This document shows positions 3,965-31,835 of a stretch of 33,534 nt of DNA, one piece after another. Each line of letters begins with the position of its first letter. Within the stretch, counting starts at the first letter, position 1. Position numbers and translations under genes: made by a program. The notes below the pieces were generated by a model, which saw only the letters and a list, made by a program, of their open reading frames with translations, made no database searches and was not told the origin of the DNA. The stretch lies in NCBI GenBank assembly GCA_015485235.1, contig WFTX01000073.1, forward strand, positions 1-33,534, written 5' to 3'. The DNA comes from Nitrospirota bacterium (GTDB lineage Bacteria; Nitrospirota; Thermodesulfovibrionia; Thermodesulfovibrionales; JdFR-85).

Positions 3965-5155
3965 ATGATGAGACATTCAGTTTTTGGTGTATTGTTGAGC
4001 TGCTTGGTCTTTGTATGGACAGCCTCTATGGTTGTCACTCCCGTGGATGCCCAGGAGGTGGACTGTCTCCAGTGCCACCCTGACCTGAAGGAGCATAAGG
4101 TTATCCACCCCGCCCTTGAGATGGGCTGCACTGCCTGCCATGTCGGACTTGATGTGAGTGACATTCCCCATAAAGTTACAAACGGTGTAACGAAGGGGCT
4201 GATGGCCGAGCCGCCTGATCTATGCTACAACTGCCATGACCAGGGGATGTTCGAGAAGAAATCGAGGCATCCTGCCCTGGATATGGGGTGTACTACCTGC
4301 CATAACCCCCACTCCTCGGATAATGAAAAAATGCTCATGAATTCTCCTCCAGACCTCTGTTACAACTGTCACGATCAGGGGATGTTCACCAAGAAGTATG
4401 TCCACCCCGCCCTTGAGATGGGCTGCACGACTTGTCATAACCCTCACAGCTCCGATGCAGAGGGGCGGATGCTTGTTTCAGATCCTCCGGACCTCTGCTT
4501 CAACTGTCATGACCAGTCGAAGTTTTCAGGTGAGGGGACAATCCATCCACCTGTGGCTGCCGGTATGTGCACTTCCTGCCACAGCCCACACTCTGAGGAC
4601 CGGGAAAAACTCCTGCTGAGTGAACCCCCGGGGCTCTGTTTCAACTGTCACGCCAAGACAAAATTTGAAGGTGCAGTGGTCCATACACCTGTTCAGATAG
4701 GGATGTGCACGACCTGCCACAATCCCCACAAATCAAAGAACGGGAAACTGCTTCAGTCTCCTCTTCCGGACCTGTGCTACAACTGTCATGACAAGGCAGA
4801 ATTTACAAAAAAAGAGATACATCCGCCCGTGGCCGCAGGGATGTGTACTGAATGTCATCAGCCCCATGCTGGTAGTGAAATAAAACTTTTAAAGAACAGG
4901 CCCATAAGGGTCTGCCTCAAATGTCACAGAGGTTTGTTGAGAAAGCCCCATGCAATCATGGCCTTTTCCCGTACAGGTGGACATCCTGTTGGAGATGTCA
5001 GAAAGAAGAAAAAACCCGTTGTTGATCCGAAGCGGCCTGGAAGGGAATTCTACTGCGGCAGTTGCCACAATCCCCATAGCTCCGACTGGGGAAGGCTCTT
5101 CCGTTACAGGGCAGATTCGACCATGGCTCTTTGTCCATACTGTCATAATTACTGA
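3965..5155 (+). CDS. multihaem c-type cytochrome, 15 CXXCH motifs (doubled-CXXCH / cytochrome c7-c3-like repeat units), Sec signal peptide
   Basis: I counted 15 CXXCH motifs by hand. A ~40-aa unit recurs: PPDLC(Y/F)NCHD-x(10-14)-HP-x(5-6)-G(M)CTxCH(N/S)PH. The N-terminal signal is MMRHSVFGVLLSCLVFVWTASMVVTPVDA|Q. GGGAGG lies just upstream, so the ATG at 3968 is an equally good start. Confidence 0.93.
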   Translation: MMRHSVFGVLLSCLVFVWTASMVVTPVDAQEVDCLQCHPDLKEHKVIHPALEMGCTACHVGLDVSDIPHKVTNGVTKGLMAEPPDLCYNCHDQGMFEKKSRHPALDMGCTTCHNPHSSDNEKMLMNSPPDLCYNCHDQGMFTKKYVHPALEMGCTTCHNPHSSDAEGRMLVSDPPDLCFNCHDQSKFSGEGTIHPPVAAGMCTSCHSPHSEDREKLLLSEPPGLCFNCHAKTKFEGAVVHTPVQIGMCTTCHNPHKSKNGKLLQSPLPDLCYNCHDKAEFTKKEIHPPVAAGMCTECHQPHAGSEIKLLKNRPIRVCLKCHRGLLRKPHAIMAFSRTGGHPVGDVRKKKKPVVDPKRPGREFYCGSCHNPHSSDWGRLFRYRADSTMALCPYCHNY

Positions 5156-5213
5156 TGGTGGAATGTTTTTTGCTTTAATCTTTATTAGGGTAATATGTGA
5201 GGAAGGAGAAGAA

Positions 5214-6236
5214 ATGATGAATACGTTTAAAGGAGCCATTATGTCAGCACTTTTGGTGCTTAGTGCAATCTTTCTGTTTGTCTCCTGTGCTACACCACCT
5301 GAACGGATTGAAGAGAGTGAGTATGTCTGGCCCCTTCCGCCCGAGAAACCAAGGGTGAGATACGTGAAGAGCCTCTGGGGTGAGGAGGATGTCAGGAAGT
5401 CGGCTCCATCAGATTTCATAGTCGGCAAGGACCCTTCCACAGACCTCTTCAAACCCTATGGTCTGGCAACTGATTACTCTGGACGCATCTTTGTTACTGA
5501 TACTGTGAGAAGGGTGGTGTTTGTTTTTGATGAATTGATGGGGGATCTGAAGTTCCTGGGACTTCATGATCTGCCGCTTGGTGTTCCTGCTGATGTGGTT
5601 GTTGATCAGAAGGAGAGGGTCTTTGTGTCTGACGCAGGGAGGGACAGAATAGTTGTATTTGATCTGGATGACCGGATCCTCAATCAATTTGGACAAGGTG
5701 TGCTTGATAATCCTGCCGGAATGGCGATTGACGAGGGTCGCCAGAGACTCTATGTTGTATCAACTCATACCCACTCAGTTGAAGTGTTTTCCCTTGAGGG
5801 GAAACATCTTTTCAGATTTGGCGGGCATGGTGCAGGTCCCGGGCAGTTCAACTATCCCATGGACATAGCTGTAGGCCCGACAGGTGATCTCTATGTGGTG
5901 GACAGTGCCAACTTCAGGGTGCAGATTTTCACAAGTGAAGGTGATTATGTCAGGGAGTTTGGTACTCTTGGAACAGGGCCCGGACAGTTCTCAAGACCTA
6001 AAGGGATTGCTGTTGATCAGGCAGGAAGGATATTTGTCACCGACGCCTCGTTCAACAACTTCCAGATATTCAACGATATGGGGCAGCTCCTTCTCTTTGT
6101 CGGGACGGGCGGGGTTACAGGCCCGGGCGAGTTCTCACTTCCAGCGGACATCGAGGTGGACGGCCAGGGGAGAATATACGTAGCAGATCAGCTCAACAGA
6201 AGGGTTCAGGTCTTTGAAATGATCAGGGATAAATAA
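5214..6236 (+). CDS. NHL-repeat (six-bladed beta-propeller) lipoprotein, paralog 1
   Basis: The listed ORF starts at 4950 and overlaps the cytochrome gene. AAGGAG lies 6 nt before the ATG at 5214, which gives a lipoprotein signal (MMNTFKGAIMSALLVLSAIFLFVSC|A). NHL repeats recur, for example GPGQFNYPMDIAVGPTGDLYVVDSANFRVQIF, GPGQFSRPKGIAVDQAGRIFVTD and GPGEFSLPADIEVDGQGRIYVAD. The VWPLPPEKPRV motif follows the lipobox. Confidence 0.9.
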   Translation: MMNTFKGAIMSALLVLSAIFLFVSCATPPERIEESEYVWPLPPEKPRVRYVKSLWGEEDVRKSAPSDFIVGKDPSTDLFKPYGLATDYSGRIFVTDTVRRVVFVFDELMGDLKFLGLHDLPLGVPADVVVDQKERVFVSDAGRDRIVVFDLDDRILNQFGQGVLDNPAGMAIDEGRQRLYVVSTHTHSVEVFSLEGKHLFRFGGHGAGPGQFNYPMDIAVGPTGDLYVVDSANFRVQIFTSEGDYVREFGTLGTGPGQFSRPKGIAVDQAGRIFVTDASFNNFQIFNDMGQLLLFVGTGGVTGPGEFSLPADIEVDGQGRIYVADQLNRRVQVFEMIRDK

Positions 6237-6270
6237 AATCCTAAATTCTAAACACTAAGCCCTAAACAAA
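6236..6270 (-). repeat. left inverted arm (GATTTAGG-type module, reverse orientation) flanking four-helix-bundle gene 1
   Basis: aaatcctaaattctaaacactaagccctaaacaaa can pair with 6664-6698 at 28 Watson-Crick pairs plus 1 G-U over 35 positions (hand alignment). Confidence 0.7.
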
Positions 6271-6275
6271 TACAA

Positions 6276-6629
6276 ATGAGCAGAAATTCAAAACAGTATG
6301 ATCTGGAGGAGAGAACATTCATCTTTGCAAAAGAAGTAATCGACCTGGTAGATGATGTATCAAAAAGCCTGGTTAACCTGGAGATTGGTAAGCAACTTGT
6401 CCGTGCTGCTGGTTCTGTAGGTGCAAATCATATTGAAGCGAATGAATCTTTGAGCAAGAAGGATTTTATAATGCGGATAAAGATATGCAGGAAGGAATCC
6501 AAGGAGTCAAGATACTGGTTGAATTTGCTTAAATATAGGGATGGAATGGATGGCCGGAGGGATGCCCTTATTCAGGAAGCTACAGAACTGATGAAGATAT
6601 TTGGCGCCATCCTGGAGAAAAGCAAATAA
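6276..6629 (+). CDS. four-helix-bundle protein (TIGR02436 / Pfam 23S_rRNA_IVP family; Avd-like)
   Basis: 117 aa. Family-typical layout: FEERxFxFAxxV-like N-terminus (YDLEERTFIFAKEVIDLV), QLVRAAGSVGANHIEANES, FIMRIKICRKESKESRYWLNLL. Confidence 0.88.
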   Translation: MSRNSKQYDLEERTFIFAKEVIDLVDDVSKSLVNLEIGKQLVRAAGSVGANHIEANESLSKKDFIMRIKICRKESKESRYWLNLLKYRDGMDGRRDALIQEATELMKIFGAILEKSK

Positions 6630-6639
6630 TCTGCACAAA

Positions 6640-6698
6640 TTGTTTTGAGATTTGAATTTTGGAATTGTTTAGGATTTAGTAATTAGAAATTAGAATTT
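6640..6698 (+). repeat. GATTTAGG-type module (M4) copy; right inverted arm of four-helix-bundle cassette 1
   Basis: ttgttttgagatttgaattttggaattgtttaggatttagtaattagaaattagaattt is colinear with 13967-14027, 16613-16671 and 17588-17627. It ends about 8 nt before the AGGAGG of the next gene. Confidence 0.75.
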
Positions 6699-6719
6699 AA
6701 ACAACAGGAGGTTGATAAA

Positions 6720-7799
6720 GTGAATAGAATAATGATACTGCTTATGTCCTTTCCCGTTGTCTTTGCCCTGCTCCTTACAGGTTGTGTCTCCCAGCAGAAA
6801 GAGGTAAAGAAAAAAACGGAACCTTTGAAGGAGATTGTCTGGCCTCCCCCCCCTGAAAAACCAAGGGTGAAATGGGTGGCCCAGTACAGGGGAAGCGACG
6901 ATGTCGAGCAGGGACCGGATGTGTTGAAGTTTCTTGGAGAGCAGAGGATTGTACGACTCAGACGGCCTCAGGGAATAGTAGCTGACAGGGATGGAAATAT
7001 ATATGTCTCGGATATTGCAACTCCTCCAAGAGTGTTTGTTTTTGATTTCAAGAACAATAAATTCAGGGTGTTTGGCAGAAAGGGTATAATGAAGTTAAAG
7101 ATTCCACTGGGACTTGCAATTGACAATGACAGGAGGCTTCTTTTTGTTGCTGACAACGGCCACAAGGCCGTAATTGCCCTGGATATAGATTCTGATTCCA
7201 TTAAGTTCGTTATAGACAGTCAAAGGGGTGGTTTTAAAAATCCCAACTCGGTGGCAGTCGATCCTCAAAGAAAGCGCATATATGTCTCTGACTCGAAACT
7301 CCATGTTGTCAAAGCGTTTAGCTATGATGGCAATCTTCTTTTTACTATCGGAAAGGGAAAGCGGACAACAGATGATGATGGTTTTAACGTTCCAGCCTCC
7401 GTTTCTGTTGACAGAGAAGGAAATGTGTACGTCGCCGATATGTTCAACAGATATATAAAAATCTTTGACTCCAATGGCCAATTTGTCAAAAAAATAGGTT
7501 ATGGTGTTGGTACGGGACTCGGGAACTTTTCCAAACTCGTTGGAGTTGCAGTTGACTCGGAAGGACATATATATGGACTGGATACTGACTTCTGTAATTT
7601 CCAGATCTTTGATCAGGATAATAACTTTCTTCTTTTCGTAGGAGAGCCCGGGACCAGGGTCGGCAAGTTTCTGCTGCCAAAGCGGATTTACATAGATGAG
7701 AACGACATGATTTATGTAAGTGATACCTTTAATCACAGGATTCAGGTTCTTCAGTATCTCAGAGACGAAAGCAGTAAAAATAGGTCAGGACAGCAATGA
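6720..7799 (+). CDS. NHL-repeat lipoprotein, paralog 2
   Basis: GTG start with AGGAGG 8 nt upstream. The signal and lipobox read MNRIMILLMSFPVVFALLLTGC|V. The VWPPPPEKPRV motif is present. NHL repeats include PQGIVADRDGNIYVSD, PNSVAVDPQRKRIYVSD, PASVSVDREGNVYVADMFNRYIKIF and LVGVAVDSEGHIYGLD. Confidence 0.9.
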   Translation: MNRIMILLMSFPVVFALLLTGCVSQQKEVKKKTEPLKEIVWPPPPEKPRVKWVAQYRGSDDVEQGPDVLKFLGEQRIVRLRRPQGIVADRDGNIYVSDIATPPRVFVFDFKNNKFRVFGRKGIMKLKIPLGLAIDNDRRLLFVADNGHKAVIALDIDSDSIKFVIDSQRGGFKNPNSVAVDPQRKRIYVSDSKLHVVKAFSYDGNLLFTIGKGKRTTDDDGFNVPASVSVDREGNVYVADMFNRYIKIFDSNGQFVKKIGYGVGTGLGNFSKLVGVAVDSEGHIYGLDTDFCNFQIFDQDNNFLLFVGEPGTRVGKFLLPKRIYIDENDMIYVSDTFNHRIQVLQYLRDESSKNRSGQQ

Positions 7800-7886
7800 A
7801 AGCATGAACCGTATAAGAAGCAGATTACGAAGTGTTCAGTGTAACCCGTGTTTTTTCCCTGTAACTGTTTCCATAGTTCAATCTAC

Positions 7887-7902
7887 TGTGTGAAAACACA
7901 CA
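7887..7902. promoter_or_regulatory. palindrome TGTGTG-AAAA-CACACA, possible activator site upstream of the sigma-54 promoter at 8054
   Basis: Perfect 6+4+6 palindrome about 150 bp upstream of the -24 element. Position fits an enhancer-binding-protein UAS, but this is a motif-only call. Confidence 0.3.
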
Positions 7903-8053
7903 TTCGGAGTTATTTCCCACATAAAATGAAGGACTTCCAAAAAAGGCCTAAGGTCATATGAACCATTTTGTGGGTTAAATAAGGTTTGTCGGTTATGTTA
8001 CTTATTGAAAAATAAACATATTTCACTAATGCTTCAAATATCTCTTCCGCTTC

Positions 8054-8069
8054 TGGCACGTGAGTTGCA
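8054..8069 (+). promoter_or_regulatory. sigma-54 (-24/-12) promoter for tetrahaem cytochrome A
   Basis: TGGCAC-gtgag-TTGCA matches the TGGCAC-N5-TTGCW consensus exactly. It lies about 100 nt upstream of the ATG at 8170. Confidence 0.75.
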
Positions 8070-8169
8070 TATATTAATGCAATAGAAACAAGGACATGAT
8101 TCAGGAGGTGTGATTATGAGAAAGATAATGTTTGATTCTTATAAATCCCTAATGAAAGGAGGTGAACAA

Positions 8170-8826
8170 ATGAAAAGGATTCTCGTACTCGCAGCTATAC
8201 TCACCCTTGTGATGGCTGGTGCAGCCTTTGCGGGTGTCTCCGGTACGCTCCATGACCTGAGCGGTGGCACAGGCCAGATCTGTGTTGCCTGTCATACCCC
8301 TCACGGTGCCCAGTCAAGCTCCAATGGTCCGCTCTGGAACAGGAACTACGACAACTCCGCCACTACCTACACCACTTACACAAATACCGGAACCTTTGAT
8401 ATGGGTCCTGTGGTCGGTCTTGGCCCTCAGTCACTGGCGTGCCTCAGCTGTCACGACGGTACTGCATCCCAGCTTGTGAACTATCCCGGGCCTGGTGCAG
8501 CCAACTCCAACTACGATCTGACTTCAACAAGTTTCAACAATCAGAACAACAACTCACTCATCAACACTGACCTTACCGATGACCATCCCGTTGGTTTTGT
8601 TTACAACCCCGGTGCGGATGCACAGGTCAACAACTTCCCGACTGCGGTTAATGGTGTGATTGCCAATGTCTTTCCGCTCTATGGTGCTTCCAACAATACC
8701 TTTGAGTGCGCAACTTGCCATGATGTGCATAATATAGCACATCCTGCACGGGATCCCGTGTACTTCCTCAGGACGAGCAATAACCAGTCCGCACTTTGTG
8801 GTGCTTGCCACACAGCTAAACTCTAA
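8170..8826 (+). CDS. small secreted tetrahaem c-type cytochrome, paralog A
   Basis: AAAGGAGGTG lies 7 nt before the ATG at 8170, so the listed start at 8110 is an unsupported extension. The signal is MKRILVLAAILTLVMAGAAFA|G. Four CXXCH motifs: CVACH, CLSCH, CATCH, CGACH. Blocks shared with 16693 and 18981: HDLS, CxxCHTPHGA, PLWN, CLSCHDG, NxPGPG, DHPV, CxTCHDxH. Confidence 0.92.
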   Translation: MKRILVLAAILTLVMAGAAFAGVSGTLHDLSGGTGQICVACHTPHGAQSSSNGPLWNRNYDNSATTYTTYTNTGTFDMGPVVGLGPQSLACLSCHDGTASQLVNYPGPGAANSNYDLTSTSFNNQNNNSLINTDLTDDHPVGFVYNPGADAQVNNFPTAVNGVIANVFPLYGASNNTFECATCHDVHNIAHPARDPVYFLRTSNNQSALCGACHTAKL

Positions 8827-8862
8827 TATATTAAGTGAATCGGGAGAAAGGCAAGATTTTTT

Positions 8863-8897
8863 AAAAGGAGCGGGTTTGAAACCCGCTCCTTTTATTT
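8863..8897 (+). terminator. Rho-independent terminator after tetrahaem cytochrome A
   Basis: A 13-bp stem pairs aaaaggagcgggt (8863-8875) with acccgctcctttt (8881-8893) around a 5-nt loop. It is followed by a T-rich tail (ttttatttg). Confidence 0.85.
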
Positions 8898-9018
8898 GCT
8901 TCAATAAGTAATGTTGTCTGCATACAGACACCAAGAAAGCCCTTTTGTTGTTACTTTGCTGTTAGACGTCAATTAGGTGCTAAACTAAACGGGGAATAAA
9001 TAAGGAAGTTCTGACTTG

Positions 9019-10809
9019 ATGGGCACAGGTATAAATGAAAAATTCAGTCCTCTATTGGGGAAACTCCTTGTCTTTGTTTTTTTTATTGTCTTTGCCATTT
9101 CAATAGTTCGCCCTATCATCGATCCTGATCTCTTCTGGCACCTTGCCACTGGCAAGTGGATCGTCGAGCATAAAACCTTGCCTGCAGAAGATCCCTTTTC
9201 CTTTACCACCCAACGATATGCCTATGAAGAGTTCGACAGGACCAGGTTCATCCTAAGGCAATACTGGCTGGGTCAGATAATAATATATCTTTGTAACCAA
9301 ATGGCAGGATACTGGGGCAATATAGGATTCAGGGTAATTCTTTTCCTGGGCATACTCTTTCTGCTTAATCGATGGTTGAAGGAAGATAATATTGACCCTT
9401 TAGCGCGGGTTTTGTTTCTTGTGCCTTCAGGAATGATACTCAGTCTTTTTGTCGGTGACCGTCCCAACCAGATGACTTATCTGTTCTCCGTGATCATGTT
9501 CTATCTGCTAAAAAAATATCGACAAGGCGAAAATAGAGCGGGTTACCTGATGATCCCGGTGATGATCCTCTGGTCAAACATACATGGCGGGTTCATATTG
9601 GGTGATGTCTTGCTTGTAATTAGCCTCTCCCTGGCTTGTATAAGTTATCTTGTAAGAACAAAAGAGGGGAAATCAAACGCTGATATCGCCAAAAAGGGAG
9701 CACTCAGGGATGTCGTCGTTTTTAGCTCTTCAATTCTTGCCTCCTTTGTTAACCCAAATCATATCAAGGTGGTTTTTACCCTTCTGGAATCCCGGTCCTT
9801 TTATAAGTTCAGCGTCTTCGAAAACCTTACGCCTTTTCAGTATATGCAATATGGACAGAATATGTACGTTTATATCTTGGTGCTTTACCTTGTTATATTG
9901 TCTCCTGCGATTCTGTTAGCTTACAGACGAGATAAAAAAGGGGGTATTTTCTTTGGTTTAACGGCGTTATTTCTTACGGGACTTTCCACTATGGGAGTCA
10001 GATACATGCCTTTTACAGCACTTCTTCTTACACCCCTTGTTGCAAGAGAATATGGACCATATATCAACAGAGGCAAAGGTGTTGTATTTAAGGCCGTAAT
10101 TGCCTTAATAATCCTCTCTGTTTTTATATACAATGCCAGATCTCCTCTCCTGAAAGCCGGGAGATCTTTGCCACCATTAAGTTCAAACTTTCCGACTAAT
10201 ATAGTCCGGTTTGTAAAGAGTGAGGGCATCAAAGGCAATGTTTTCAATACATATTCCATTGGTGGATACCTCATATGGACACTTTATCCAGATGTGAGAG
10301 TATTCATAGATGGAAGAGGACTGGTGCAAAGGGTATTTTACGCATATAAGAGAATTGTGAAAGGAGATCAGAGCATTATTGAGGGTGTGCCTGTCTGGAA
10401 GGCCCTACTCGAGAGTTATAAGATAAAATACGCGCTCATAGAGCCGACTGATATTATTGGTGGAATGAGGGATATAGTTATACGGCTTGTTGAGGATCCT
10501 GAGTGGAGGCTTAATTACATTGATGAAGTATCCAATGTGATGTTATTCTCCAAAGATCCTGCGTTGCAGGAAATCCCTGGCATCCTTGCTTATGCCGATA
10601 TTTTGAAGATTTCTCTCCTGAATGTAAGAAACATGCCCGACAACCCGCAGGGGTATGTTACTCTTGCAAAGATTTATACTCTACTTGGAAAAAGAGGAAG
10701 AGCTATTGCTACCCTTGAGGGAGCGATAAGAAACCATCCTGCATGGGGGGAGGGCTTCATAGGTCAACTGCTTGATTATATAAAGAAAAACGAGATCGTA
10801 AGGTGGTGA
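9019..10809 (+). CDS. large polytopic membrane protein, GT-C-like (ArnT/PMT-style) putative glycosyltransferase with soluble C-terminal domain and TPR-like tail
   Basis: About 12-14 hydrophobic helices. An acidic first-loop motif (IIDPDLFWHLATGKW) resembles the DxD/ExD loop of GT-C enzymes. The C-terminal ~200 aa are soluble and end in a TPR-like helix pair (YVTLAKIYTLLGKRGRAIATLEGAIRNHP). The ATG at 9019 directly follows the TTG at 9016. Family assignment is tentative. Confidence 0.7.
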   Translation: MGTGINEKFSPLLGKLLVFVFFIVFAISIVRPIIDPDLFWHLATGKWIVEHKTLPAEDPFSFTTQRYAYEEFDRTRFILRQYWLGQIIIYLCNQMAGYWGNIGFRVILFLGILFLLNRWLKEDNIDPLARVLFLVPSGMILSLFVGDRPNQMTYLFSVIMFYLLKKYRQGENRAGYLMIPVMILWSNIHGGFILGDVLLVISLSLACISYLVRTKEGKSNADIAKKGALRDVVVFSSSILASFVNPNHIKVVFTLLESRSFYKFSVFENLTPFQYMQYGQNMYVYILVLYLVILSPAILLAYRRDKKGGIFFGLTALFLTGLSTMGVRYMPFTALLLTPLVAREYGPYINRGKGVVFKAVIALIILSVFIYNARSPLLKAGRSLPPLSSNFPTNIVRFVKSEGIKGNVFNTYSIGGYLIWTLYPDVRVFIDGRGLVQRVFYAYKRIVKGDQSIIEGVPVWKALLESYKIKYALIEPTDIIGGMRDIVIRLVEDPEWRLNYIDEVSNVMLFSKDPALQEIPGILAYADILKISLLNVRNMPDNPQGYVTLAKIYTLLGKRGRAIATLEGAIRNHPAWGEGFIGQLLDYIKKNEIVRW

Positions 10810-10845
10810 TGTATCAAATCCTGAACAAATCCACTATCTTAAAAT

Positions 10846-11040
10846 GAAGAACCCTGCGGCAAGACCACGTGGATCGATATGATTAAAAATGCGCTCGCTG
10901 TGCATATTCAAGACGGTATTGGCCACAGATGACACAGAAAAAAACGATTTTCACTGATCTCCTCAACCTCGACCTCAGCCTGTCTTATTGCTTTTCCCTG
11001 CCCGCTACCCGCTGTTTTTTAAACCTCAGCCTTGACCTGT
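10846..11040 (-). repeat. intergenic modular repeat, copy C (all modules in reverse orientation)
   Basis: gaagaaccctgcggcaagacc (10846-10866) is the reverse complement of 3430-3450. ccacagatgacacagaaaaaaacgattttcactgatc is the reverse of the CAGTG module. ctcctcaacctcgacctcagcc (10959-10980) and aaacctcagccttgacctgt (11021-11040) are reversed GGTTGAGG modules. ccctgcccgctacccgc (10996-11012) is the reversed GCGGGTAGCG module. Confidence 0.75.
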
Positions 11041-11047
11041 GTTGCTA

Positions 11048-11063
11048 TGGTCTGAAAATTGCA
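11048..11063 (+). promoter_or_regulatory. sigma-54-like promoter upstream of the DUF1670-like/OMP operon
   Basis: TGGTCT-gaaaa-TTGCA has correct GG-N10-GC spacing and a perfect -12 TTGCA, but a weaker -24 element. It lies about 140 nt upstream of the ATG at 11205. Confidence 0.5.
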
Positions 11064-11204
11064 TATTAATTACTGGTATTATTTTTTTGTTTCAGGAAGT
11101 ATGGGTTCATATGAGCTTCCAAGGATTGTGGGCATAGTACTTTCGTTCTGGAAGTGGGTTAAAACCCATATTTCTGTGTCATATCACGCAAGGGAGGTGC
11201 TTTC

Positions 11205-11465: not shown

Positions 11466-11468
11466 AGA

Positions 11469-13822: not shown

Positions 13823-13840
13823 AAGAAAGCGGGTATAAAT

Positions 13841-14027: not shown

Positions 14028-14044
14028 TTATGAAAGGAGTCTTG

Positions 14045-15007: not shown

Positions 15008-15028
15008 GGTTAAGGTTGAGGTCGAGAA
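15001..15028 (+). repeat. GGTTGAGG-type module (M1); left inverted arm of four-helix-bundle cassette 2
   Basis: aggttgaggttaaggttgaggtcgagaag overlaps the PPIase stop codon. 15002-15022 is the perfect reverse complement of 15469-15489 (21/21). Confidence 0.85.
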
Positions 15029-22422: not shown

Positions 22423-22437
22423 AAGGGGGTGTTAATT

Positions 22438-25400: not shown

Positions 25401-27570
25401 TAATGCTACTTCTTTAACCTCACCATACGGTGCACCTAATACAGATCTTGTCTGGGGTACAGGCACTGCTGACTGCTCAAGCTGCCATACAGGACCACCA
25501 ACAGGACCTGACTACACCAATGGAAGCCCAAAGGCAAACAGTCATTCCACCCATACTGTAACAAACAGCTTCAACTGCATAGAGTGTCACAACTCGACCG
25601 TTGACAACGCAAATAACATCGCAACACCTGCCAATCACCTGAACCAGACATACGATGTAAGCGGAGCAGAGATTGGCTCATACACATCTAATACAAAGAC
25701 CTGTAATACCGTTTACTGTCATGGCTCCACCCTCACGGCAGGGGCCGATACTTCTCCGACGTGGGGCACCACGGTTACCTGCGGCGACTGCCACGGTGCA
25801 TCAGCTACAACACCGCCGACGGCTGGTTCCCATGAGCGCCATGCCGGGAGCGGAACCTTCGGAACCGGGCAGCAGGGGCTTGGACTGGCCTGTACCGAGT
25901 GTCATGGCACAACTGCAGGTGGTACAGGGCACGTGAACAAAGATGTTTCCTGGGATCTCTCAGCGATAGATACTGCTGCAACATATCAGGGCCTGAACAG
26001 CGGCTCTACCGGTGCAAAGGCCCCGAGCGGAACCTATGGAAGCTGTAACAATGTTTACTGTCACAGTGACGTTCAGGCAGACGGTGGTAATGCTGGACCT
26101 CAGAACTATGCAACCCCCACATGGGGTGGCTCGGTCACCTGTGACTCCTGCCACGGCACGGCAGGTAACGGCGATGGTCAGCCTGCAACGGGAAGCCATA
26201 CTGCCCATGTGGCAAACAACTCCTTTGCATGCAGCACCTGCCATAATGGTGCAGGCGATGAAACAACACTTCATGCAAACCAGACCATAAACATATCCAT
26301 AGATACAGCTTACGATGCAGGCGCAGCAGCTTACTCTCAGGGCAGCCATACACCTGGAAGTGGCGGCTATGGTTCATGTTCCAGTATCACCTGTCATGGA
26401 AGCGGCACCCCGACCTGGGGTGGTACGGTAACCTGCCAGGACTGCCACCTTGGCACAGGTGATGTGGATGACTACACCTTCAGTAATTTCGGCAGCGGTA
26501 TGACTATGGCCCAGATTGACTCTACGGAGTGGACTTCCACAGGCCATGGCAGAACGACGGGAACATACAATGTCTCAGGAAACGCAGCCGCAGGGCTCTC
26601 CTGCGAGTACTGCCATGATGATACAGTAGCACATGGTACAAGCACCAACCCGTTCCGCCTTGCAAACTACAATGCCGGCGGTAACGGCTGGAACGATACC
26701 TGTTTTGCCTGTCACCAGACCGGCTCGACCGGGTATGATCCTGATGGTGCAGGCCCGCTTGCTCTGAAAAATTCCACACTCAAGATAGACAAGTATCATT
26801 ACGGTACAAAGCACGGCGCAACCAATGACGGCGGCTCCCTCTGCTTTGACTGTCATGATCCGCACGGTGACAGCAACATCTACATGATCCACGACAATGT
26901 GACCAAGGACAAGGCAGACACATACGGTACTCCTTCAACAACAGGAGCACCGGTCTTTACTGCAAACACCACGGGTACAGACTATGCCAAGTCATCTGCA
27001 CCGTTTAACGGTGTCTGTAATGTCTGCCATACAACGACAAACCACTACACCTCCTCAAGCGGTGACGGCCATAACAGCGGCACGAAGTGTACCACCTGTC
27101 ATACTCACAGCGGTGATACCACCGTTGACGGTAACGCCTTCTCACCGCAGGGTGGTGCCTGTAATGCCTGTCACGGCTACCCGCCGACCATTGGTGATGG
27201 CAAGGCCTACATGGATGGTGTCGGTGAGTCCAAGGGTGCCCATACCCAGCATGTGAACCACCTCCTGAACCTCACGGGTTACACCCTTGATCCGCAGAAC
27301 GACTCTTTCGGTGATGCCAAGTGGCAGGCGATATGTGGTACATGCCATTACGGTGCAACCCATGAAACGAATCTTGCAGGTCAGACTGACAACTCTTCTG
27401 CAAGACATATACAGGTTGATCCTCAGTACCAGTTCGATCCTGTGAATCTACCGACCTATAACGGAGTGCCTGGAACCAGCTCAACTGTGAACCTGAAGTC
27501 CTGCTCGAGTGTGAGATGTCACTTCAAAGACTCACCGGGCTGGCAGGATCCGGCAACGGCGGGACAATAA
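22438..27570 (+). CDS. giant secreted multihaem c-type cytochrome (~1710 aa; about 31 CXXCH + 10 CX4CH) built from CxxxxCH...CXXCH modules (TIGR01904-like)
   Basis: AAGGGGGTG precedes the ATG at 22438; GTG 22429 and ATG 22456 are alternative starts. The signal ends ...GIILCFIPGLALG|A. Modules recur: GYG(S/A)C(S/N)(S/T)(V/T)YCH...WGGTV(A/T)CGDCH...GSHTxH...CSTCHNGAG. CxxCHGYPP motifs lie at both ends. Composition is strongly G/T/S/N-rich. Motif counts are by hand. Confidence 0.93.
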   Translation: MASSSGMKKRKQMILFAIGIILCFIPGLALGAVNPPHTAGANCDSCHFTYSSTPAWWTNPPADLDDTPKNRLCLNCHDDVTAPKKKTHSSLATGSTKYGDWTNECVTCHDPHMQRQIYNNEFPPALTGTITAVDGATNTFTLSITLPDRTGDSDPTNDYAGWTIVPNTKYKIVNYKIASNTANTVTVTTAINTARVSVGSTFGILYGKYIKELVYTPNSGPKYVKFYETENGPHSYINNDGLAGGQDSTPDGICQVCHTQTSRARNDGTGFGDGHPTDTSANCQACHDHATAGFAGIGGCTNCHGYPPVDDTTLVFKDKNGISVTSSSTGGNPGAGAHSAHISAGLDCVNCHTGGMLGGASQGNNNIDIGFFLGSNLGGTYDGQPNPPKSVFPLNAGGTTTITTGGSYGCSSVYCHSNVQGQTDGTGGPTVYGNPVWNNAASVQCGSCHNADGVQGDASLMSSGSHTTHVGAPLSKQCNECHNGAGSGTTVHVNNNINLAFQADPFSASGSYSQSPNTPGNGYGSCSSVYCHSTVQADGGSNAPTYANPTWGGTVACGDCHNADGVQGNATIMSTGSHTKHASTYGFACSTCHNGAGSGTAKHADKNIDIIIDTLYGASASYSQMPSNAPGNGYGACSTVYCHSNGKVNDTGSAVGQYASPNWGTDNGTLTCTSCHGTGGTSQVGEPDYANAGAGAVDANSHSPHISSLGASTISCNKCHSQTVDVAGAIDIAGGKHVNLTKDVVFSDGGTYTASTKTCSTTYCHGTGTPQWGGTVACGDCHAVNNTLASKHPTHYSTATNATVTDRTTAANNSTTTSYVFSCAVCHNGASHAGGAVGGGQTAEITFDGTVAGGGTYTAGGTTTTDPNGFDYTNGSCSTTYCHSNGNGGAPNVTPSWDSAVTLDCKSCHNYTAASGTPMASGSHTAHINDGTVMTNKSCEDCHNATTTDGTTIADKTKHVNHTKDVVLSSTWGGSYTSGACSTSYCHSNATSLTSPYGAPNTDLVWGTGTADCSSCHTGPPTGPDYTNGSPKANSHSTHTVTNSFNCIECHNSTVDNANNIATPANHLNQTYDVSGAEIGSYTSNTKTCNTVYCHGSTLTAGADTSPTWGTTVTCGDCHGASATTPPTAGSHERHAGSGTFGTGQQGLGLACTECHGTTAGGTGHVNKDVSWDLSAIDTAATYQGLNSGSTGAKAPSGTYGSCNNVYCHSDVQADGGNAGPQNYATPTWGGSVTCDSCHGTAGNGDGQPATGSHTAHVANNSFACSTCHNGAGDETTLHANQTINISIDTAYDAGAAAYSQGSHTPGSGGYGSCSSITCHGSGTPTWGGTVTCQDCHLGTGDVDDYTFSNFGSGMTMAQIDSTEWTSTGHGRTTGTYNVSGNAAAGLSCEYCHDDTVAHGTSTNPFRLANYNAGGNGWNDTCFACHQTGSTGYDPDGAGPLALKNSTLKIDKYHYGTKHGATNDGGSLCFDCHDPHGDSNIYMIHDNVTKDKADTYGTPSTTGAPVFTANTTGTDYAKSSAPFNGVCNVCHTTTNHYTSSSGDGHNSGTKCTTCHTHSGDTTVDGNAFSPQGGACNACHGYPPTIGDGKAYMDGVGESKGAHTQHVNHLLNLTGYTLDPQNDSFGDAKWQAICGTCHYGATHETNLAGQTDNSSARHIQVDPQYQFDPVNLPTYNGVPGTSSTVNLKSCSSVRCHFKDSPGWQDPATAGQ
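23665..26400 (+). repeat. nine tandem ~110-120-aa CX4CH...CXXCH...CXXCH modules inside the giant cytochrome gene
   Basis: The CX4CH cysteines fall at codons 413, 529, 640 and 762, continuing to 1317. Modules 1 and 2 share long DNA identities, for example tccagcgtttactgtcacag at 23668 and 24016. Confidence 0.8.
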
Positions 27571-27584
27571 GGGGGGGGTGACTG

Positions 27585-30500
27585 ATGAGAGCTAAAATGG
27601 AGATGAACAGGACAGACGGAACGATGAGGACGGAGATCATGGACATAAACCAGAGGATGCAGGGCACTCTCCCTGCATCCTCCAACGAAATCAACGAAAT
27701 CAACCAAATGAACGAAATCAACGAGATCAACGAGATGAACCAAATAAACCAAATCAACGAAAGTGAGGTGAGGACGGTCATGGGAGGAATCTTCGGTAGG
27801 AGGAATCATAAAACTAAGAACGTCGAACTCAGAACGTGGAACGTTGAACGTTTTTCCTTTGTTATTCTCCTGGCTGTCCTGGCCATGGTGATGATGTTTG
27901 GAGGAGCAATACCGCCTGCATCTGCGTATAATGCCGGTGATGTGATCTATGTAAATGCCACAGTGAGCAACTATTGTCCAAATGGTTCGCAATTTGACCT
28001 GATAGTGACCTTGACAGACTTCTATGGAAATCCTGTCACCGGACTTTCCAGTGATAACAAAAACTATGGATTAATTCTAAAGAATATTAAAGATAGTGCC
28101 AAGGCGAATGTAAGTTACACAGGTTTTATTGTTAATACGCAGAATACAAACGCCTGGACTGAGATTGGTAATGGCCAGTATAAGCAGACAGGGACTATCA
28201 CAAGCGGTACAGATCCTGTATATTTTGATCTTGAATACCGAGACCCTAATAATACTAACTACAAGATGAAAGCAGCAGTTATGATAAATCGTCAGGGGGC
28301 GTGTTCAGGTACAAATCCCGGCATTCTCGACTCTGCGCCTGATTATACCTATTACCCCATCCCGACTGGTACAGTGGTTATTAAAGCCCGACTGAAAAAC
28401 CAGGACGGTACAGCCCATGCAGGTGCAAACTGCCCAACGGGTTATGATGATGCAAACAAATGGGGCGGTGGTACTGCTGATACCTTATATATTAACAACC
28501 TGAAAGATGTGAATAATAACAATGCTACCTCATGGTCAGTTACAGGCTGTACAGATAATGGGGATGGTACATATGATATCACATTAAATTACGATGTTAC
28601 CGGGACAAATGATCCGGAAATATGGTTGCCCGAACTGAGGTACGATTGGGATAGTGCTGCTAATATAAAAATGACCACAGTGGCCGCCTTCGAGGTTAAC
28701 TCAACTCAGGCACCTACCAATCCAACGGGTACACCTCCGGCAAATCCAGGATGCCCTGAATGTACAGCGCCTGCTGATACCACACCTCCCACCGAAGGCA
28801 CACTGTCCATCAGTCCCGATGATGGCACATACACAGGCCCTGATTTTACCATCACAGAAGACTTTACAGACAATGAGTCAGCCGTTACCTCCTGTGAATA
28901 CACCATTGATGGTGGAACAAACTGGGCTGCCGGAACGGTAAGCGGCACGGGGCCCTATACCTGTACAGCCAATGTGACAGGTGCAACAGGGACCGTGACA
29001 GTACAGATGAGAGCAACCTCTGCTGGAGGTACAAGTACTCCAACAAATACAATAACAAGAACTGTGGACAGCACTCCTCCGACAGACGGCACTCTTACGG
29101 CCGTTCCTGGCAATACACAGATAAGCCTGTCTTGGACTGCTGCTTCTGATACCGAGAGCGGGCTTGATGCAACTAATCCTTATAAACTTGTAAGGGCAAT
29201 TGGAGCAACTCCCCCGGCTGACTGTACTGGTGCAGCCCTGTACCAGGGCACTGCACTGACTTTCACAGATACAGGGCTGACTAATGGGCAGCAGTACTCT
29301 TACAGGGTCTGTGCATACGATGCCATGGGTAATGTGTCAGCGGGCGCCACTGCTTCAGCAACGCCTCAGGCATGCCAGGCTACTGCACCGACAGACCTTG
29401 CGGCAACCAATGTCACTTCAAGCAAGGTTGACCTTACATGGACTTACGATGGAACCAACAACGATTACTACAGTGTATATCGTGATGGAGTTCAGATAGC
29501 AACGAATATAACAACGGGCAGTTACTCAGATACGACTGTCTCCCCTAATACTACTTACAACTACACTGTCCGTGGTTACAACAACGCAGGTACATGTGAG
29601 AGTGGCGACTCGAACGTGGTGAACGTCACCACGCCAGCAGGCCCCACATATACTGTCACTTCCTGCTCCGACTGTCATGACTATCCGCCGACAGATGCGA
29701 CGGGAGGGAGGAATACCCCCGTTGGAGCGGTTATAGGTTCCCATGACATTCATGTAAACCAGAACGGGCTGGCCTGTACAACGTGCCATATCGACAATGG
29801 GACGAACCTTGCTCACAGGAATAACCAGATAGACATCAATGCAAGTATCCAGGGTGGCAGTTATTCCACCACTGATCCGGACTTTCCATCCCAGGATATT
29901 GAGGACGGTACAGGACTCGGCAGTTGTGTCACCACGAACTGTCATGGCTCTTCATCCCCTGTCTGGGGGAATAATACTGCGACACCGACCTGCTACAAGT
30001 GCCACGGTACCCAGGCAAACGGCAATAACGCCCCGCCTGTCGACACGAACGGCGATACAGCAGCAACAGACCCTCAGGTCGGCGCTCACCAGGCACACCT
30101 CCAGGCTACGGACAACTATTCAAGCCCGATAGCCTGTAACGAGTGCCATACGGTACCAACCAATGTGTTTGATACTGGACATATTGACTCTGCCCTACCT
30201 GCTGAACTCACCTTCGGAACCCTTGCAACCACGAATGGTGCGACTCCGTCCTATACTGGCGGGACATGCTCAAACACCTACTGTCATGATGAAGCCAACT
30301 TCAAGAATGCCTGGGGTACTGGTACGCCTCCGACATGGAACGACACGACTTATATACAGGGTACATCGGCCGACTGTTCCCAGTGCCACGGCTACCCGCC
30401 CGGCGGCGGCCATCCTGCTAATGCTACCAACTGTACATCCTGTCACAGTCATGTGAATTCTACAAATGATGGATTCACTGATCCCACCCTGCATGTAAAT

Positions 30501-31835
30501 GGCCTTGTAGAGGGTGGTGGAGACTGCCTCGGATGCCATCTTGACTCGCAACAGGGGACTTCAAGGCGTGCTGTGAGAGGAGATTTCCTGAAGACCTCAC
30601 ACCATGTTGCCACCGGTGCCCCGACAGATGTTCTGACCTGTGAGGCATGTCACGGGGATCTTCTTACTGATCAGGGACATCCCGGGACTGCTACAACAGA
30701 CCCGATTACTCAGGTAGAGGATGCTGATACGGCCGGTACCTATTACAGTATTGATCCTTCTACTGCAGATGCCAATCTTGCCACTTTCTGTCTGAGCTGC
30801 CACGATGCAGACGGTGCTGCCAGGCTCGGGGCCAATGCAACCCAGCCCTTTGCTGACTCAGGTGATACCACTACGCCTCCGAACATCAACCTTGCCTGGA
30901 CAAATACAGTAAATCACAGTGCAAATGCTACCTGTAACGACTGCCACGGTGACAACAACGCTGCAGGCACATCCCTTGATCCGACTTATAATCTCCATGG
31001 GAGCTCAAATGCGAAGCTCCTGAGAGAGGCCACTGAATACGACACCTGTGTAACCAGCGGTTGTCACGGCTCAGGCGGTTCGGCTACTACTGACATGACC
31101 GTTGAACTTTCGGGAATATATGGTAAACATCCTATCGGTTCTGCAGTGACCCCGAAATCCGGGTTCCTTTCGCAGGACACTGCCGGTGACCTCTTTGTAA
31201 ACGGCTGGATGTACAATTCCGTAGCCCAGTGTTCCGACTGTCACGGTATGAACCAGGCTGGATCAAATAACGTGGGACCGAGAGGACCTCATGGTTCTGC
31301 CTATACTTACATGCTCAGAGGCGTGGATACATCGATCAATACTGTAACCTCCGGAAGGACCTATGGAACTGTCCAGAACAGCTCGATGACTGGAACATAT
31401 ACCCGGGAAAACTTCTGTGTAAACTGCCATGCCTCCGACATTTACGGTGATGGTAATGACGGTATCCCTTCGCAGGCTAATACAGTACAGCAATCAATTA
31501 ACGCCAATAAGAACTTCATTCACTACAGCACGTTCCGGACTGGCCGTTGTGGTACTCCTGCAGGCGGAGCGGCAGGAGCAGGTAATAAAAGTAATGTCGG
31601 CTGCAGGAACTGTCATGCTGGACTTGGCACAGATAAGAACTACGGAGCACACAGCTCCAACACGAACGGGCTTGAATTTACCGGCAATGTCGGCGGAAAG
31701 TGGTATGGCTGGGGAACCGGCTTCATGAACGGTGATTCCTGGTCAAGTGCACCAAATGCAGCCTCAAGCGGTAAATGCTATGCAAATGTAGGTACTACCA
31801 CATGGAATACCTGTAACAAGGGTATACACAATTAA
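27585..31835 (+). CDS. giant secreted chimeric protein: Ig-like / fibronectin-III-like N-terminal half plus C-terminal multihaem cytochrome (13 CXXCH + 3 CX4CH)
   Basis: The ORF is open from the ATG at 27585, but codons 1-65 cover a hairpin and a 9-nt simple repeat. The ATG at 27780 has GAGGTGAGG upstream and gives the signal ...FSFVILLAVLAMVMMFGGAIPPASA|Y, so it is the more likely start. Two FN3-like units lie at about 29070-29640 (ISLSWTAASDTESGL...YSYRVCAYDAMGN; VDLTWTYDG...YNYTVRGYNNAG). The haem region runs from 29664 and includes CSDCHDYPP, CSNTYCH and CSQCHGYPP. Confidence 0.9.
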   Translation: MRAKMEMNRTDGTMRTEIMDINQRMQGTLPASSNEINEINQMNEINEINEMNQINQINESEVRTVMGGIFGRRNHKTKNVELRTWNVERFSFVILLAVLAMVMMFGGAIPPASAYNAGDVIYVNATVSNYCPNGSQFDLIVTLTDFYGNPVTGLSSDNKNYGLILKNIKDSAKANVSYTGFIVNTQNTNAWTEIGNGQYKQTGTITSGTDPVYFDLEYRDPNNTNYKMKAAVMINRQGACSGTNPGILDSAPDYTYYPIPTGTVVIKARLKNQDGTAHAGANCPTGYDDANKWGGGTADTLYINNLKDVNNNNATSWSVTGCTDNGDGTYDITLNYDVTGTNDPEIWLPELRYDWDSAANIKMTTVAAFEVNSTQAPTNPTGTPPANPGCPECTAPADTTPPTEGTLSISPDDGTYTGPDFTITEDFTDNESAVTSCEYTIDGGTNWAAGTVSGTGPYTCTANVTGATGTVTVQMRATSAGGTSTPTNTITRTVDSTPPTDGTLTAVPGNTQISLSWTAASDTESGLDATNPYKLVRAIGATPPADCTGAALYQGTALTFTDTGLTNGQQYSYRVCAYDAMGNVSAGATASATPQACQATAPTDLAATNVTSSKVDLTWTYDGTNNDYYSVYRDGVQIATNITTGSYSDTTVSPNTTYNYTVRGYNNAGTCESGDSNVVNVTTPAGPTYTVTSCSDCHDYPPTDATGGRNTPVGAVIGSHDIHVNQNGLACTTCHIDNGTNLAHRNNQIDINASIQGGSYSTTDPDFPSQDIEDGTGLGSCVTTNCHGSSSPVWGNNTATPTCYKCHGTQANGNNAPPVDTNGDTAATDPQVGAHQAHLQATDNYSSPIACNECHTVPTNVFDTGHIDSALPAELTFGTLATTNGATPSYTGGTCSNTYCHDEANFKNAWGTGTPPTWNDTTYIQGTSADCSQCHGYPPGGGHPANATNCTSCHSHVNSTNDGFTDPTLHVNGLVEGGGDCLGCHLDSQQGTSRRAVRGDFLKTSHHVATGAPTDVLTCEACHGDLLTDQGHPGTATTDPITQVEDADTAGTYYSIDPSTADANLATFCLSCHDADGAARLGANATQPFADSGDTTTPPNINLAWTNTVNHSANATCNDCHGDNNAAGTSLDPTYNLHGSSNAKLLREATEYDTCVTSGCHGSGGSATTDMTVELSGIYGKHPIGSAVTPKSGFLSQDTAGDLFVNGWMYNSVAQCSDCHGMNQAGSNNVGPRGPHGSAYTYMLRGVDTSINTVTSGRTYGTVQNSSMTGTYTRENFCVNCHASDIYGDGNDGIPSQANTVQQSINANKNFIHYSTFRTGRCGTPAGGAAGAGNKSNVGCRNCHAGLGTDKNYGAHSSNTNGLEFTGNVGGKWYGWGTGFMNGDSWSSAPNAASSGKCYANVGTTTWNTCNKGIHN
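27653..27682 (+). other. perfect 12-bp hairpin (gaggatgcaggg / ccctgcatcctc, 6-nt loop) between the two giant cytochrome genes
   Basis: Hand-checked complementarity between 27653-27664 and 27671-27682. No T-tract follows, so it is not a classical terminator. It shares the CCCTGC core with the hairpin module at 3423-3445. Confidence 0.7.
27684..27760 (+). repeat. 9-nt periodic simple repeat (AACGAAATC)n, about 8.5 units
   Basis: The units read aacgaaatc aacgaaatc aaccaaatg aacgaaatc aacgagatc aacgagatg aaccaaata aaccaaatc aacga. If coding, this translates as NEINEINQMNEINEINEMNQINQINE. Confidence 0.85.

Follow-up and report, generated by a model that had tools for sequence, protein, structure and literature searches.

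A Nitrospirota locus of two adjacent multihaem cytochrome modules, the first probably of the Uet/OmcE type

Described clusters and the Nitrospirota locus

The multihaem cytochrome locus considered here lies at positions 3965-31835 of a 33,534-nucleotide contig of a Nitrospirota bacterium (WFTX01000073.1, assembly GCA_015485235.1), the whole of which is referred to as the window. Among described systems, it is best compared with the uet and omcE gene clusters. The cluster uetABCDEFGHIJ encodes a tetrahaem cytochrome (UetA), a peptidyl-prolyl isomerase (PPIase; UetB), a predicted 28-strand barrel with a lumen modelled at about 5 nm (UetC), three trihaem c7 cytochromes (UetD, UetE and UetG), a cupredoxin (UetF), two NHL-repeat proteins (UetH and UetI) and an undecahaem cytochrome (UetJ), and possible polymerisation of the cytochromes was raised in the same preprint (bioRxiv 10.1101/2022.05.06.490989). 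According to a Gallionellaceae pangenome, the set is present in six Gallionella (PMC10734462). Electron uptake has been proposed for its carriers, 'Ca. Tenderia electrophaga', Tenderiales and Gallionella, which are aerobic chemolithoautotrophs (bioRxiv 10.1101/2022.05.06.490989; PMC10734462).

In omcE clusters, OmcE and a large β-barrel are encoded along with a pair each of multihaem cytochromes and β-propeller lipoproteins, often followed by glycosyltransferases of families GT2, GT4 and GT39 and by TPR proteins. Examples are the GSU0618 region of Geobacter sulfurreducens and the cluster of Desulfuromonas soudanensis WTL, and omcE homologues were reported from five phyla including Nitrospirota (bioRxiv 10.1101/2025.10.22.684050). 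The preprints defining uet and omcE use separate names, and neither mentions the other (bioRxiv 10.1101/2022.05.06.490989; 10.1101/2025.10.22.684050). For the osc operon of G. sulfurreducens, a role in folding has been proposed for OscH, in secretion for OscE, OscF and OscG, and in filament morphology for OscD (Shen et al. 2025 cited in PMC13194489), the barrel or channel being given a secretion or anchor role (PMC13194489; bioRxiv 10.1101/2025.10.22.684050).

In the window, a run of open reading frames (ORFs), all co-oriented on the + strand, spans 3965-31835. Haem-c motifs (CXXCH, CX3CH and CX4CH) were counted in seven of them, yielding 15 at 3965-5155, 4 at 8110-8826, 4 at 16678-17481, 8 (7+1) at 17648-18637, 4 at 18981-19691, 41 (31+10) at 22429-27570 and 16 (13+3) at 27585-31835, all coordinates being those of the ORF calls; the sum is 92. 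An initial annotation of the region had reached each of these numbers by hand, with about 41 for the largest protein, and the motif count reproduced every one. The remaining 15 ORFs of the window (approximately 6,000 aa) carried no haem motif, so the enrichment goes beyond chance or composition. Start codons were revised by inspection of the start region (ribosome-binding site (RBS), signal peptide, lipobox), and Sec-type signal peptides were seen in this way on the cytochromes, the barrel and the PPIase.

The region consists of two separable modules, module A at 3965-18637 and module B at 18981-31885, and in the lineage of the window module B is placed directly downstream of module A. The initial annotation had treated the whole as a single supercluster, which does not hold, as module B was found alone in four other loci. 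The locus probably represents two adjacent, co-oriented extracellular electron-transfer modules, module A being a member of the Uet/OmcE-type family of porin-cytochrome plus tetrahaem filament systems. This grading applies to the classification; each single step of the mechanism set out below is graded lower. The extracellular electron-transfer role that had been assigned from the outset is supported: the gene neighbourhood is strongly conserved and the barrel-like ORF models as a barrel, so that on two points named in advance as able to refute it the initial annotation is favoured.

With the uet cluster, the window has in common the tetrahaem, the PPIase, the 28-strand barrel, the NHL proteins and a linear multihaem cytochrome. 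The gene order differs, however, and ccsAB adjoins uet but not the window cluster. The linear cytochrome has 15 haems in the window, compared to 11 in UetJ and also 11 in the syntenic gene of a Thermodesulfovibrionales metagenome-assembled genome (MAG; locus L001). The G. sulfurreducens omcE nanowire cluster, for which Wang et al. 2022 is reportedly the source, shares with the window a large β-barrel, β-propeller lipoproteins and two multihaem cytochromes besides an OmcE-homologous tetrahaem that keeps its haem ligands; a membrane glycosyltransferase-like gene and TPR genes are nearby in both. In the window, the parts beyond OmcE and the barrel are represented by three NHL lipoproteins and by the 15-haem and 8-haem ORFs. 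Whereas the omcE cluster has one OmcE and belongs to Desulfuromonadia, the window comes from a Nitrospirota-like phylum and holds three OmcE paralogues within a single operon; it also goes beyond the omcE cluster in having three NHL lipoproteins, a PPIase, DUF1670 genes and an appended giant-cytochrome cassette.

Likeness to the remaining systems was more distant. As described for osc, the window shows tetrahaem cytochromes flanked by a PPIase, a channel-like protein, β-propellers and putative periplasmic cytochromes, the accessory proteins (OscH, OscD, OscEFG) corresponding by domain class only (PPIase, β-propeller, barrel). The osc filament subunit is the hexahaem OmcS, whereas the window has no 6-haem ORF, and OmcS was matched by none of the tetrahaem, 15-haem, 8-haem and giant cytochromes in PDB searches. 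With MtrCAB of Shewanella (PDB 6r2q), the window shares the principle of a linear multihaem cytochrome in a very large porin with a surface cytochrome: MtrB was the best fold match of the barrel, MtrA was matched by the 15-haem protein, and an MtrC/MtrF-like domain occurs in the 16-haem protein. In contrast, MtrB has 26 strands and the window barrel 28, with no MtrB sequence-family match, and TIGR03507 (OmcA/MtrC decahaem lipoprotein) stayed below threshold for every window ORF. The 10-35-haem cytochromes of PCC3 in Gallionellaceae, for which a long span is possible, recall the 41- and 16-haem proteins when compared by description, but tetrahaem, NHL and PPIase proteins are not part of that system (PMC5566968, PMC10734462). 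The view that the layout is neither that of Mtr nor that of Pcc is strictly correct, but it matches the uet/omcE layout instead.

Core components of module A and their conservation

Three ORFs on the + strand encode OmcE-type tetrahaem cytochromes: OmcE1 (8170-8826; OmcE/UetA-type, with an RBS upstream of this most likely start, the ORF call having begun at 8110), the divergent OmcE2 (16693-17481; two extra Cys) and OmcE3 (18981-19691; of the orthologous group tied to module B). In PDB searches, all three matched the OmcE structures 7tfs/9yuq at about E 1e-14 to 1e-27, with E 2e-27 (9yuq) and 6e-21 (7tfs) for OmcE1, and 2e-19 and 3e-21 (7tfs) for OmcE2 and OmcE3, respectively. Entry 7tfs is the G. 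sulfurreducens OmcE filament; 9yuq comprises 16 chains of a 'putative multiheme cytochrome c', which we take to be the D. soudanensis OmcE bundle. The three window proteins are mutually paralogous at 30-33% identity.

Alignment A2 combined the three paralogues with 11 homologues of several phyla (14 sequences). Every one of the four CXXCH motifs was invariant in it, as were H28, H45, H139 and H187 (numbered from the mature start), and all eight haem-ligand His were kept in OmcE2. The conserved core given in the OmcE preprint consists of four CxxCH and four other haem-coordinating His (bioRxiv 10.1101/2025.10.22.684050), and the four further invariant His in A2 are this ligand set. Judged by sequence, the three window tetrahaems are OmcE homologues, a relationship that the initial annotation had not recognised. 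At E ≤ 1e-5 the OmcE1 family counted 3,491 members, the closest named ones coming from Nitrospirae and Thermodesulfovibrionales MAGs, and the OmcE2 orthologue in a JGI metagenome contig (L084) was 84% identical.

OmcE1 is likely the major filament subunit because its gene has a strong terminator-like hairpin of its own, with a 15-bp stem at 8862-8894 (+) directly 3' of the stop, as would be expected downstream of a highly expressed major-subunit gene. The number of His per paralogue (9 His) was considered as a mark of a 'stopper' subunit and dropped as not diagnostic, because G. sulfurreducens OmcE itself carries an extra His. In known omcE operons no tip or stopper candidate is encoded, according to the OmcE preprint, which also proposed that there may be a new family of OmcE nanowires whose extra haem is exposed to solvent (bioRxiv 10.1101/2025.10.22.684050). 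OmcE-like ORFs with five haem motifs, in agreement with that proposal, were seen in 14 of the loci surveyed below.

The ORF at 11831-13822 (+) had no Pfam or NCBIfam family match. A k-mer-seeded search of 5.8 billion proteins returned no homologue, and an exhaustive HMMER scan of 1.84 billion representatives gave just 27 relatives. Modelling by AlphaFold from the single sequence was unusable, with a predicted local distance difference test score (pLDDT) of 36. With an alignment of 20 sequences (A1) as input, AlphaFold2 yielded a model at pLDDT 83 with 28 β-strands, arranged as 6 strands, a low-confidence N/Q-rich helical insert (residues 194-266) and a further 22 strands; the C-terminus reads ...RPFWF, the final residue being Phe. 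The earlier suspicion of a barrel was borne out by this model, according to which the product is a very large, UetC-like outer-membrane barrel. The insert could be a periplasmic or plug-like segment. Its low-complexity part, which falls between strands 6 and 7 at about residues 205-260, arises from 6-, 12- and 15-nt repeats in the gene (12458-12540).

The top Foldseek match of the barrel was MtrB of the Mtr complex (6r2q_B, E 1e-8, TM-score 0.42), followed by TonB-dependent receptors, FimD ushers and LptD. In profile comparison by hhalign, the window barrel family was related to the barrels of 26 uet-ordered proteobacterial loci at 96.5% probability (E 9e-10) and to 17 barrels of the Bacteroidota/Gemmatimonadota type at 98.8% (E 5e-17). 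The link to the barrel of the Geobacter omcE cluster is weaker, drawn from an iterated profile that reached a Geobacteraceae barrel (locus L024) at E 1.4e-8, from position and from fold class, and it is not securely sequence-based.

The gene at 3965-5155 (+) encodes a 396-aa protein with a Sec signal peptide and 15 CXXCH motifs, in which Paired_CXXCH_1 scored 257 bits. It matched PDB 6r2q chain A at E 2e-21; we take this chain, mislabelled in the PDB table, to be MtrA. The protein is accordingly a candidate MtrA/DmsE-like 'wire' cytochrome, either periplasmic or transmembrane. The 8-haem cytochrome at 17648-18637 (+; 7 CXXCH and 1 CX3CH) follows OmcE2, and a pair of an OmcE-like and a c7/c8 gene recurs in four other loci, L001 and L084 among them. 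The PDB matches of the 15- and 8-haem proteins were 6r2q_A and 6qvm_A.

The gene neighbourhood was found to be conserved. In L001 the order is FGE-sulfatase, c11, NHL, NHL, tetrahaem, 693-aa barrel and Rotamase, then NHL, tetrahaem, c7, tetrahaem and NHL/BACON/FG-GAP, as in the window. Contig L084 shows the entire gene order of the cluster at 67-92% protein identity for most genes, including both DUF1670 genes, an IVS gene between the PPIase and the third NHL gene, a 41-haem protein and the first part of the 16-haem one. The gammaproteobacterium Inmirania thermothiophila has a tetrahaem, a PPIase, a 600-aa barrel, c7 cytochromes, propellers and an 837-aa multihaem protein.

A wider survey was anchored on the tetrahaem alignment, since the barrel alignment lacked a sufficiently conserved stretch, and was run on one genome per GTDB species. 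It returned 80 loci (L004-L083) from more than 15 phyla: KSB1, Nitrospirota, Bacteroidota, Gamma- and Betaproteobacteria, Desulfobacterota, Gemmatimonadota, Verrucomicrobiota, Chlorobiota, Calditrichota, Acidobacteriota, Campylobacterota, Nitrospinota and others. Barrels were located by a profile iterated on the ORFs of these loci. In 61 of the 80, a barrel, always one and never two, lay no more than 3 kb from the OmcE-like gene (median gap 1.1 kb, maximum 3 kb). An NHL propeller was present in 69 loci, a PPIase in 36, and barrel and NHL together in 56. Proteobacterial loci followed exactly the uet order, namely E, PPI, BARREL, c3, c3/c4, c3, c3, NHL, NHL and an approximately 11-haem cytochrome, with runs of c3 genes. 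Comparison across 83 loci, namely these 80 genome loci and L001-L003, suggests that the published uet and omcE clusters are one conserved module spread over more than 15 phyla.

The giant-cytochrome cassette and the accessory genes

Module B begins with OmcE3 and continues with a gene for a secreted protein of 908 aa by the long call, consisting of an NHL propeller, a BACON Ig-like domain and an FG-GAP propeller (19753-22422, +; 19753 is the most likely start, the long call beginning at 19696). NHL, BACON_2 and FG-GAP matches bear out the initial description of an NHL/Ig/FG-GAP protein, a rare architecture for which 5.8 billion proteins yielded about 21 full-length homologues. The 41-haem cytochrome follows (22456-27570, +; most likely start, the long call beginning at 22429), with a signal peptide and about ten CX4CH…CXXCH…CXXCH repeats, at 42 aa per haem. 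TIGR01904 modules were recovered in it at 244 bits, and no PDB relative was found by sequence. The 16-haem cytochrome (27780-31835, +; a probable start, the long call beginning at 27585) has a haem-free Ig/fn3-like part of about 500 aa. Its haem motifs all lie past residue 694, the haem region includes an MtrC/MtrF domain II/IV match (PF22113, 55 bits), and in the PDB it was matched solely via its fn3 domains. A 9-nt tandem repeat, CAACGAAAT, present in 8.9 copies at 27683-27762, sits in the 210 nt that separate the 41-haem gene from the probable start of the 16-haem gene, and yields a spurious 'NEINEINQMNEINE' N-terminus in the long ORF call. A strong terminator-like hairpin with a 13-bp stem at 31855-31885 (+), 3' of the 16-haem gene, closes the cluster.

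Module B is a separable cassette, since it was found alone in other Nitrospirota-like MAGs with a tetrahaem that was always nearest OmcE3. The MAGs with the cassette on its own are assemblies GCA_021814615.1, GCA_040961345.1, GCA_040960625.1 and GCA_964364055.1. In four MAG contigs (L085, L086, L087 and L089), a tetrahaem is followed by the NHL-BACON-FG-GAP gene and by a TIGR01904-type cytochrome of 32-38 haems, and L086 adds a second cytochrome of 12 haems after it. The tetrahaems of these stand-alone loci were closer to OmcE3 (36-40% identity, E 1e-36 to 1e-52) than to OmcE1 or OmcE2. Within 10 kb, no PPIase or NHL lipoprotein was found at the four loci, and their surroundings were housekeeping-like (alanine dehydrogenase, LysM, HAMP-PAS kinase, rhodanese). 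A further locus, L088, has module B without the tetrahaem, and the cassette ends with ResB/CcsB cytochrome-maturation genes. From L084 to L089, the NHL-BACON-FG-GAP gene is followed by orthologues of the 41-haem protein with 32-41 haems.

Three NHL β-propeller lipoproteins accompany module A, all on the + strand: the UetH/I- and OscD-like NHL1 at 5214-6236 (NHL 102 bits, RBS, lipobox LFVSC; 5214 is the most likely start, the initial annotation having placed it at 4950), NHL2 at 6720-7799 (87 bits, LLTGC) and NHL3 at 15400-16518 (111 bits, GLFSC). The propellers are mutually paralogous at 32-35% identity, and each has the lipobox Cys. A SurA-like parvulin PPIase (UetB/OscH-like) with a signal peptide and SurA_N_3 and Rotamase matches is encoded at 14030-15007 (+), directly 3' of the barrel gene. 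Pfam and NCBIfam matches, lipoboxes and the barrel model thus agree with the reported interleaving of NHL lipoproteins, PPIase and barrel with the cytochromes. The NHL and PPIase components had been said to have no assigned role, but roles are proposed for OscD and OscH in the literature on the osc operon.

The gene at 9016-10809 (+) encodes a polytopic membrane protein of 597 aa with about 8 predicted transmembrane (TM) segments and a soluble C-terminal part. It had no match in Pfam (E ≤ 10), NCBIfam or PDB, so the label 'glycosyltransferase', initially given as GT-C-like, stays unconfirmed. Homologues adjoin OmcE-like genes in six loci of Nitrospirota, Desulfobulbaceae, Desulfuromonadales and a gammaproteobacterium; they bear C-terminal TPR, and one had a sub-threshold PMT_2 match (E 0.02). 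An Asp right after TM1 is invariant in the family, and in GT-C enzymes the catalytic acid is located directly after TM1. For G. sulfurreducens OmcE, putative glycan densities were reported, and GT39 genes accompany omcE clusters (bioRxiv 10.1101/2025.10.22.684050); by analogy, it is plausible that the 9016-10809 product glycosylates the OmcE subunit.

Upstream of the cluster, the - strand of the window (22-3638) carries ORFs 22-1287, 1470-2405 and 2406-3638, whose products are an FGE-sulfatase-domain protein, a 410-aa protein of unknown function with one TM segment, and a polytopic membrane and TPR protein, the last encoded at 22-1287. In comparison, the TM region of the 9016-10809 protein was unrelated to that of ORF 22-1287. 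Upstream in L001 (1-6670) there are an FGE-sulfatase gene, two copies of the 410-aa gene and a polytopic membrane gene that is a homologue of the 9016-10809 protein and not of ORF 22-1287. Because the FGE-sulfatase and 410-aa genes recur there, the functional unit may begin before 3965. Just past the cluster terminator, a TPR lipoprotein (lipobox LLPSC) is encoded at 32039-33481. Upstream of cytochrome genes in Geobacter, riboswitch elements responding to cyclic di-GMP and cyclic GMP-AMP are known; riboswitches were looked for here with Rfam, and there was no match. TPR genes (nrfG) also accompany uet clusters (bioRxiv 10.1101/2022.05.06.490989).

Two small DUF1670-like proteins with a helix-turn-helix are encoded in tandem before the barrel, at 11205-11465 and 11469-11834 (+), the second matching PF07900 at E 2e-14. 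At the end of the second ORF, its stop and the start of the barrel gene overlap (ATGA). A DUF1670 gene likewise lies before the barrel in three further loci, of which L084 has the tandem pair too. The component named in the initial annotation is therefore present, but as two ORFs and not one. As helix-turn-helix proteins, the two may regulate the operon.

Four-helix-bundle '23S rRNA IVS' proteins are encoded at 6276-6629 (+; PF05635, TIGR02436; probably a passenger gene) and at 15030-15395 (+; PF05635, 117 bits). At the matching position in L084 (4975-5280) an IVS gene is 29% identical, compared to 72-88% for its neighbours, which suggests that a mobile or selfish small gene turns over here and that it is no conserved component. 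Arrays of an AGGTYR hexamer (3-10 units) were observed at six sites, where shuffled sequences lead to an expectation of 0: 10964-10981 (-), 13844-13867 (+), 15001-15024 (+), 15467-15526 (-), 16524-16541 (+) and 17495-17542 (+). Four of them lie close to stop codons, those of the barrel, PPIase, NHL3 and OmcE2 genes, at distances of up to about 25 nt, and one inverse array codes for the repetitive h-region in the signal peptide of NHL3. Between the arms 15461-15514 and 17495-17548, complementarity is 81% across 54 nt. Each unit is Shine-Dalgarno-like, and the arrays could be an mRNA-pairing, ribosome-standby or repetitive extragenic palindrome-like element.

Proposed electron path, alternatives and significance

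In the mechanism that we favour, electrons from the periplasm would enter the 15-haem MtrA-like chain, which would occupy the 28-strand barrel and thread it across the outer membrane. At the surface, the chain would pass them to OmcE-type tetrahaem subunits, and these would polymerise head-to-tail via a histidine donated in trans. The SurA-like PPIase may fold and escort the coil-rich cytochromes, the barrel or both, and the three NHL lipoproteins may serve as assembly or stabilising scaffolds at the inner face of the outer membrane. Module B probably supplies the distal, surface-contacting end of the pathway, where the NHL-BACON-FG-GAP protein would be a scaffold, the 41-haem protein a single-chain 'wire' and the 16-haem protein a contact site with adhesin-like Ig/fn3 domains. 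Electrons might flow along this path in the direction of export or of uptake.

Several observations weigh against the Uet/OmcE-type assignment and this path. The TM-score of the barrel to MtrB is just 0.42, and TonB-dependent receptors, FimD and LptD scored nearly level with it. The 15-haem protein reached 161.8 bits with TIGR03508 (the DmsE family, which covers the decahaem MtrA), under the cut-off of 192.2. In the comparison of A1 with two Geobacteraceae-type barrels (L024 and L044), hhalign returned a probability of only 27% (E 7e-4). The uet cluster has trihaem c7 cytochromes (UetD, UetE and UetG) and the cupredoxin UetF, and by motif count and Pfam the window has neither. The four stand-alone module B loci have no barrel within 10 kb.

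A tentative alternative, to which we give less weight, is that the barrel is a secretion and assembly platform that exports and mounts the OmcE-type filament, with the PPIase as periplasmic chaperone. By analogy with chaperone-usher pili and with OscEFG/OmcS, the 15- and 8-haem proteins would then be purely periplasmic carriers charging the filament base. FimD ushers are among the top fold matches, and fold does not separate a conduit from an usher, because TonB-dependent receptors, FimD and LptD score so close to MtrB. The gene of the dedicated SurA-like chaperone directly follows that of the barrel, a lumen of about 5 nm, as modelled for the 28-strand UetC, fits a folded 4-haem subunit, and the literature proposes a secretion or anchor role for such barrels and a folding role for OscH. 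Against this, MtrB is the best fold match, the operon also holds the gene of a linear, MtrA-like cytochrome, and Pfam found no usher-type plug, N-terminal or C-terminal domain. The barrel as an usher and the barrel as a conduit are, however, compatible and not mutually exclusive.

It is rather unlikely that module A is instead a non-filamentous uptake conduit of the Uet type, with the tetrahaems as monomeric MtrC-like caps and an external donor, for instance an Fe(II) mineral, a cathode or a partner in syntrophy, being oxidised instead of an acceptor being reduced. The module has been proposed for electron uptake in Tenderiales and Gallionella, many of the 80 loci come from chemolithotrophic Beta- and Gammaproteobacteria, and multihaem conduits are reversible in principle (PMC10734462). 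But both solved tetrahaem homologues (7tfs and 9yuq) are filaments, the set of His including the trans ligand is kept in the window, and the direction of electron flow is not readable from sequence. Thermodesulfovibrionales-like organisms are also typically anaerobes, which counts against this alternative.

For module B, a still less probable reading combines two ideas. The cassette would be a distinct, undescribed and barrel-independent electron-transfer device of Nitrospirota, comprising an OmcE3-type tetrahaem, the NHL-BACON-FG-GAP protein, a 32-41-haem cytochrome and, where present, a cytochrome of 12-18 haems. The OmcE paralogues would at the same time be subunits of a heteropolymer, a filament resembling a chaperone-usher pilus in which a major subunit is joined by adaptor, tip or terminator subunits coupling it to the giant cytochromes.

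That the 28 kb form one self-contained wiring system of unrecognised composition, as initially annotated, is highly improbable: the layout is strictly neither Mtr nor Pcc, NCBIfam and Pfam offer no model naming either the barrel or the cluster, and no description of module B or of the triple OmcE paralogy was found in the searchable literature, but the core composition is that of the published uet, omcE and osc clusters gene for gene, so the claim of novelty fails, the layout is widespread (80 loci, more than 15 phyla), and the region splits into two modules that are found separately.

Returning to the Uet/OmcE-type assignment, the composition of module A is already known, whereas the triple OmcE paralogy in one operon and module B are little described. 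The window cluster is a lineage-specific version of a described electron-export machine, joined to a little-described giant-cytochrome cassette. Electromicrobiology has yet to settle how cytochrome nanowires are secreted, anchored, started and terminated. In a Nitrospirota-like lineage, the locus presents an unusually complete and expanded OmcE/Uet machinery: the subunit comes in three paralogues, and a dedicated chaperone, three propeller lipoproteins and a candidate glycosyltransferase are encoded as well. Giant cytochromes of 41 and 16 haems are physically coupled to this machinery. The locus gives candidates for minor, adaptor or terminator subunits and for distal contact proteins. If the uet and omcE clusters are indeed one module, metal reducers, iron oxidisers and cathode-oxidisers in more than 15 phyla would share a single device.

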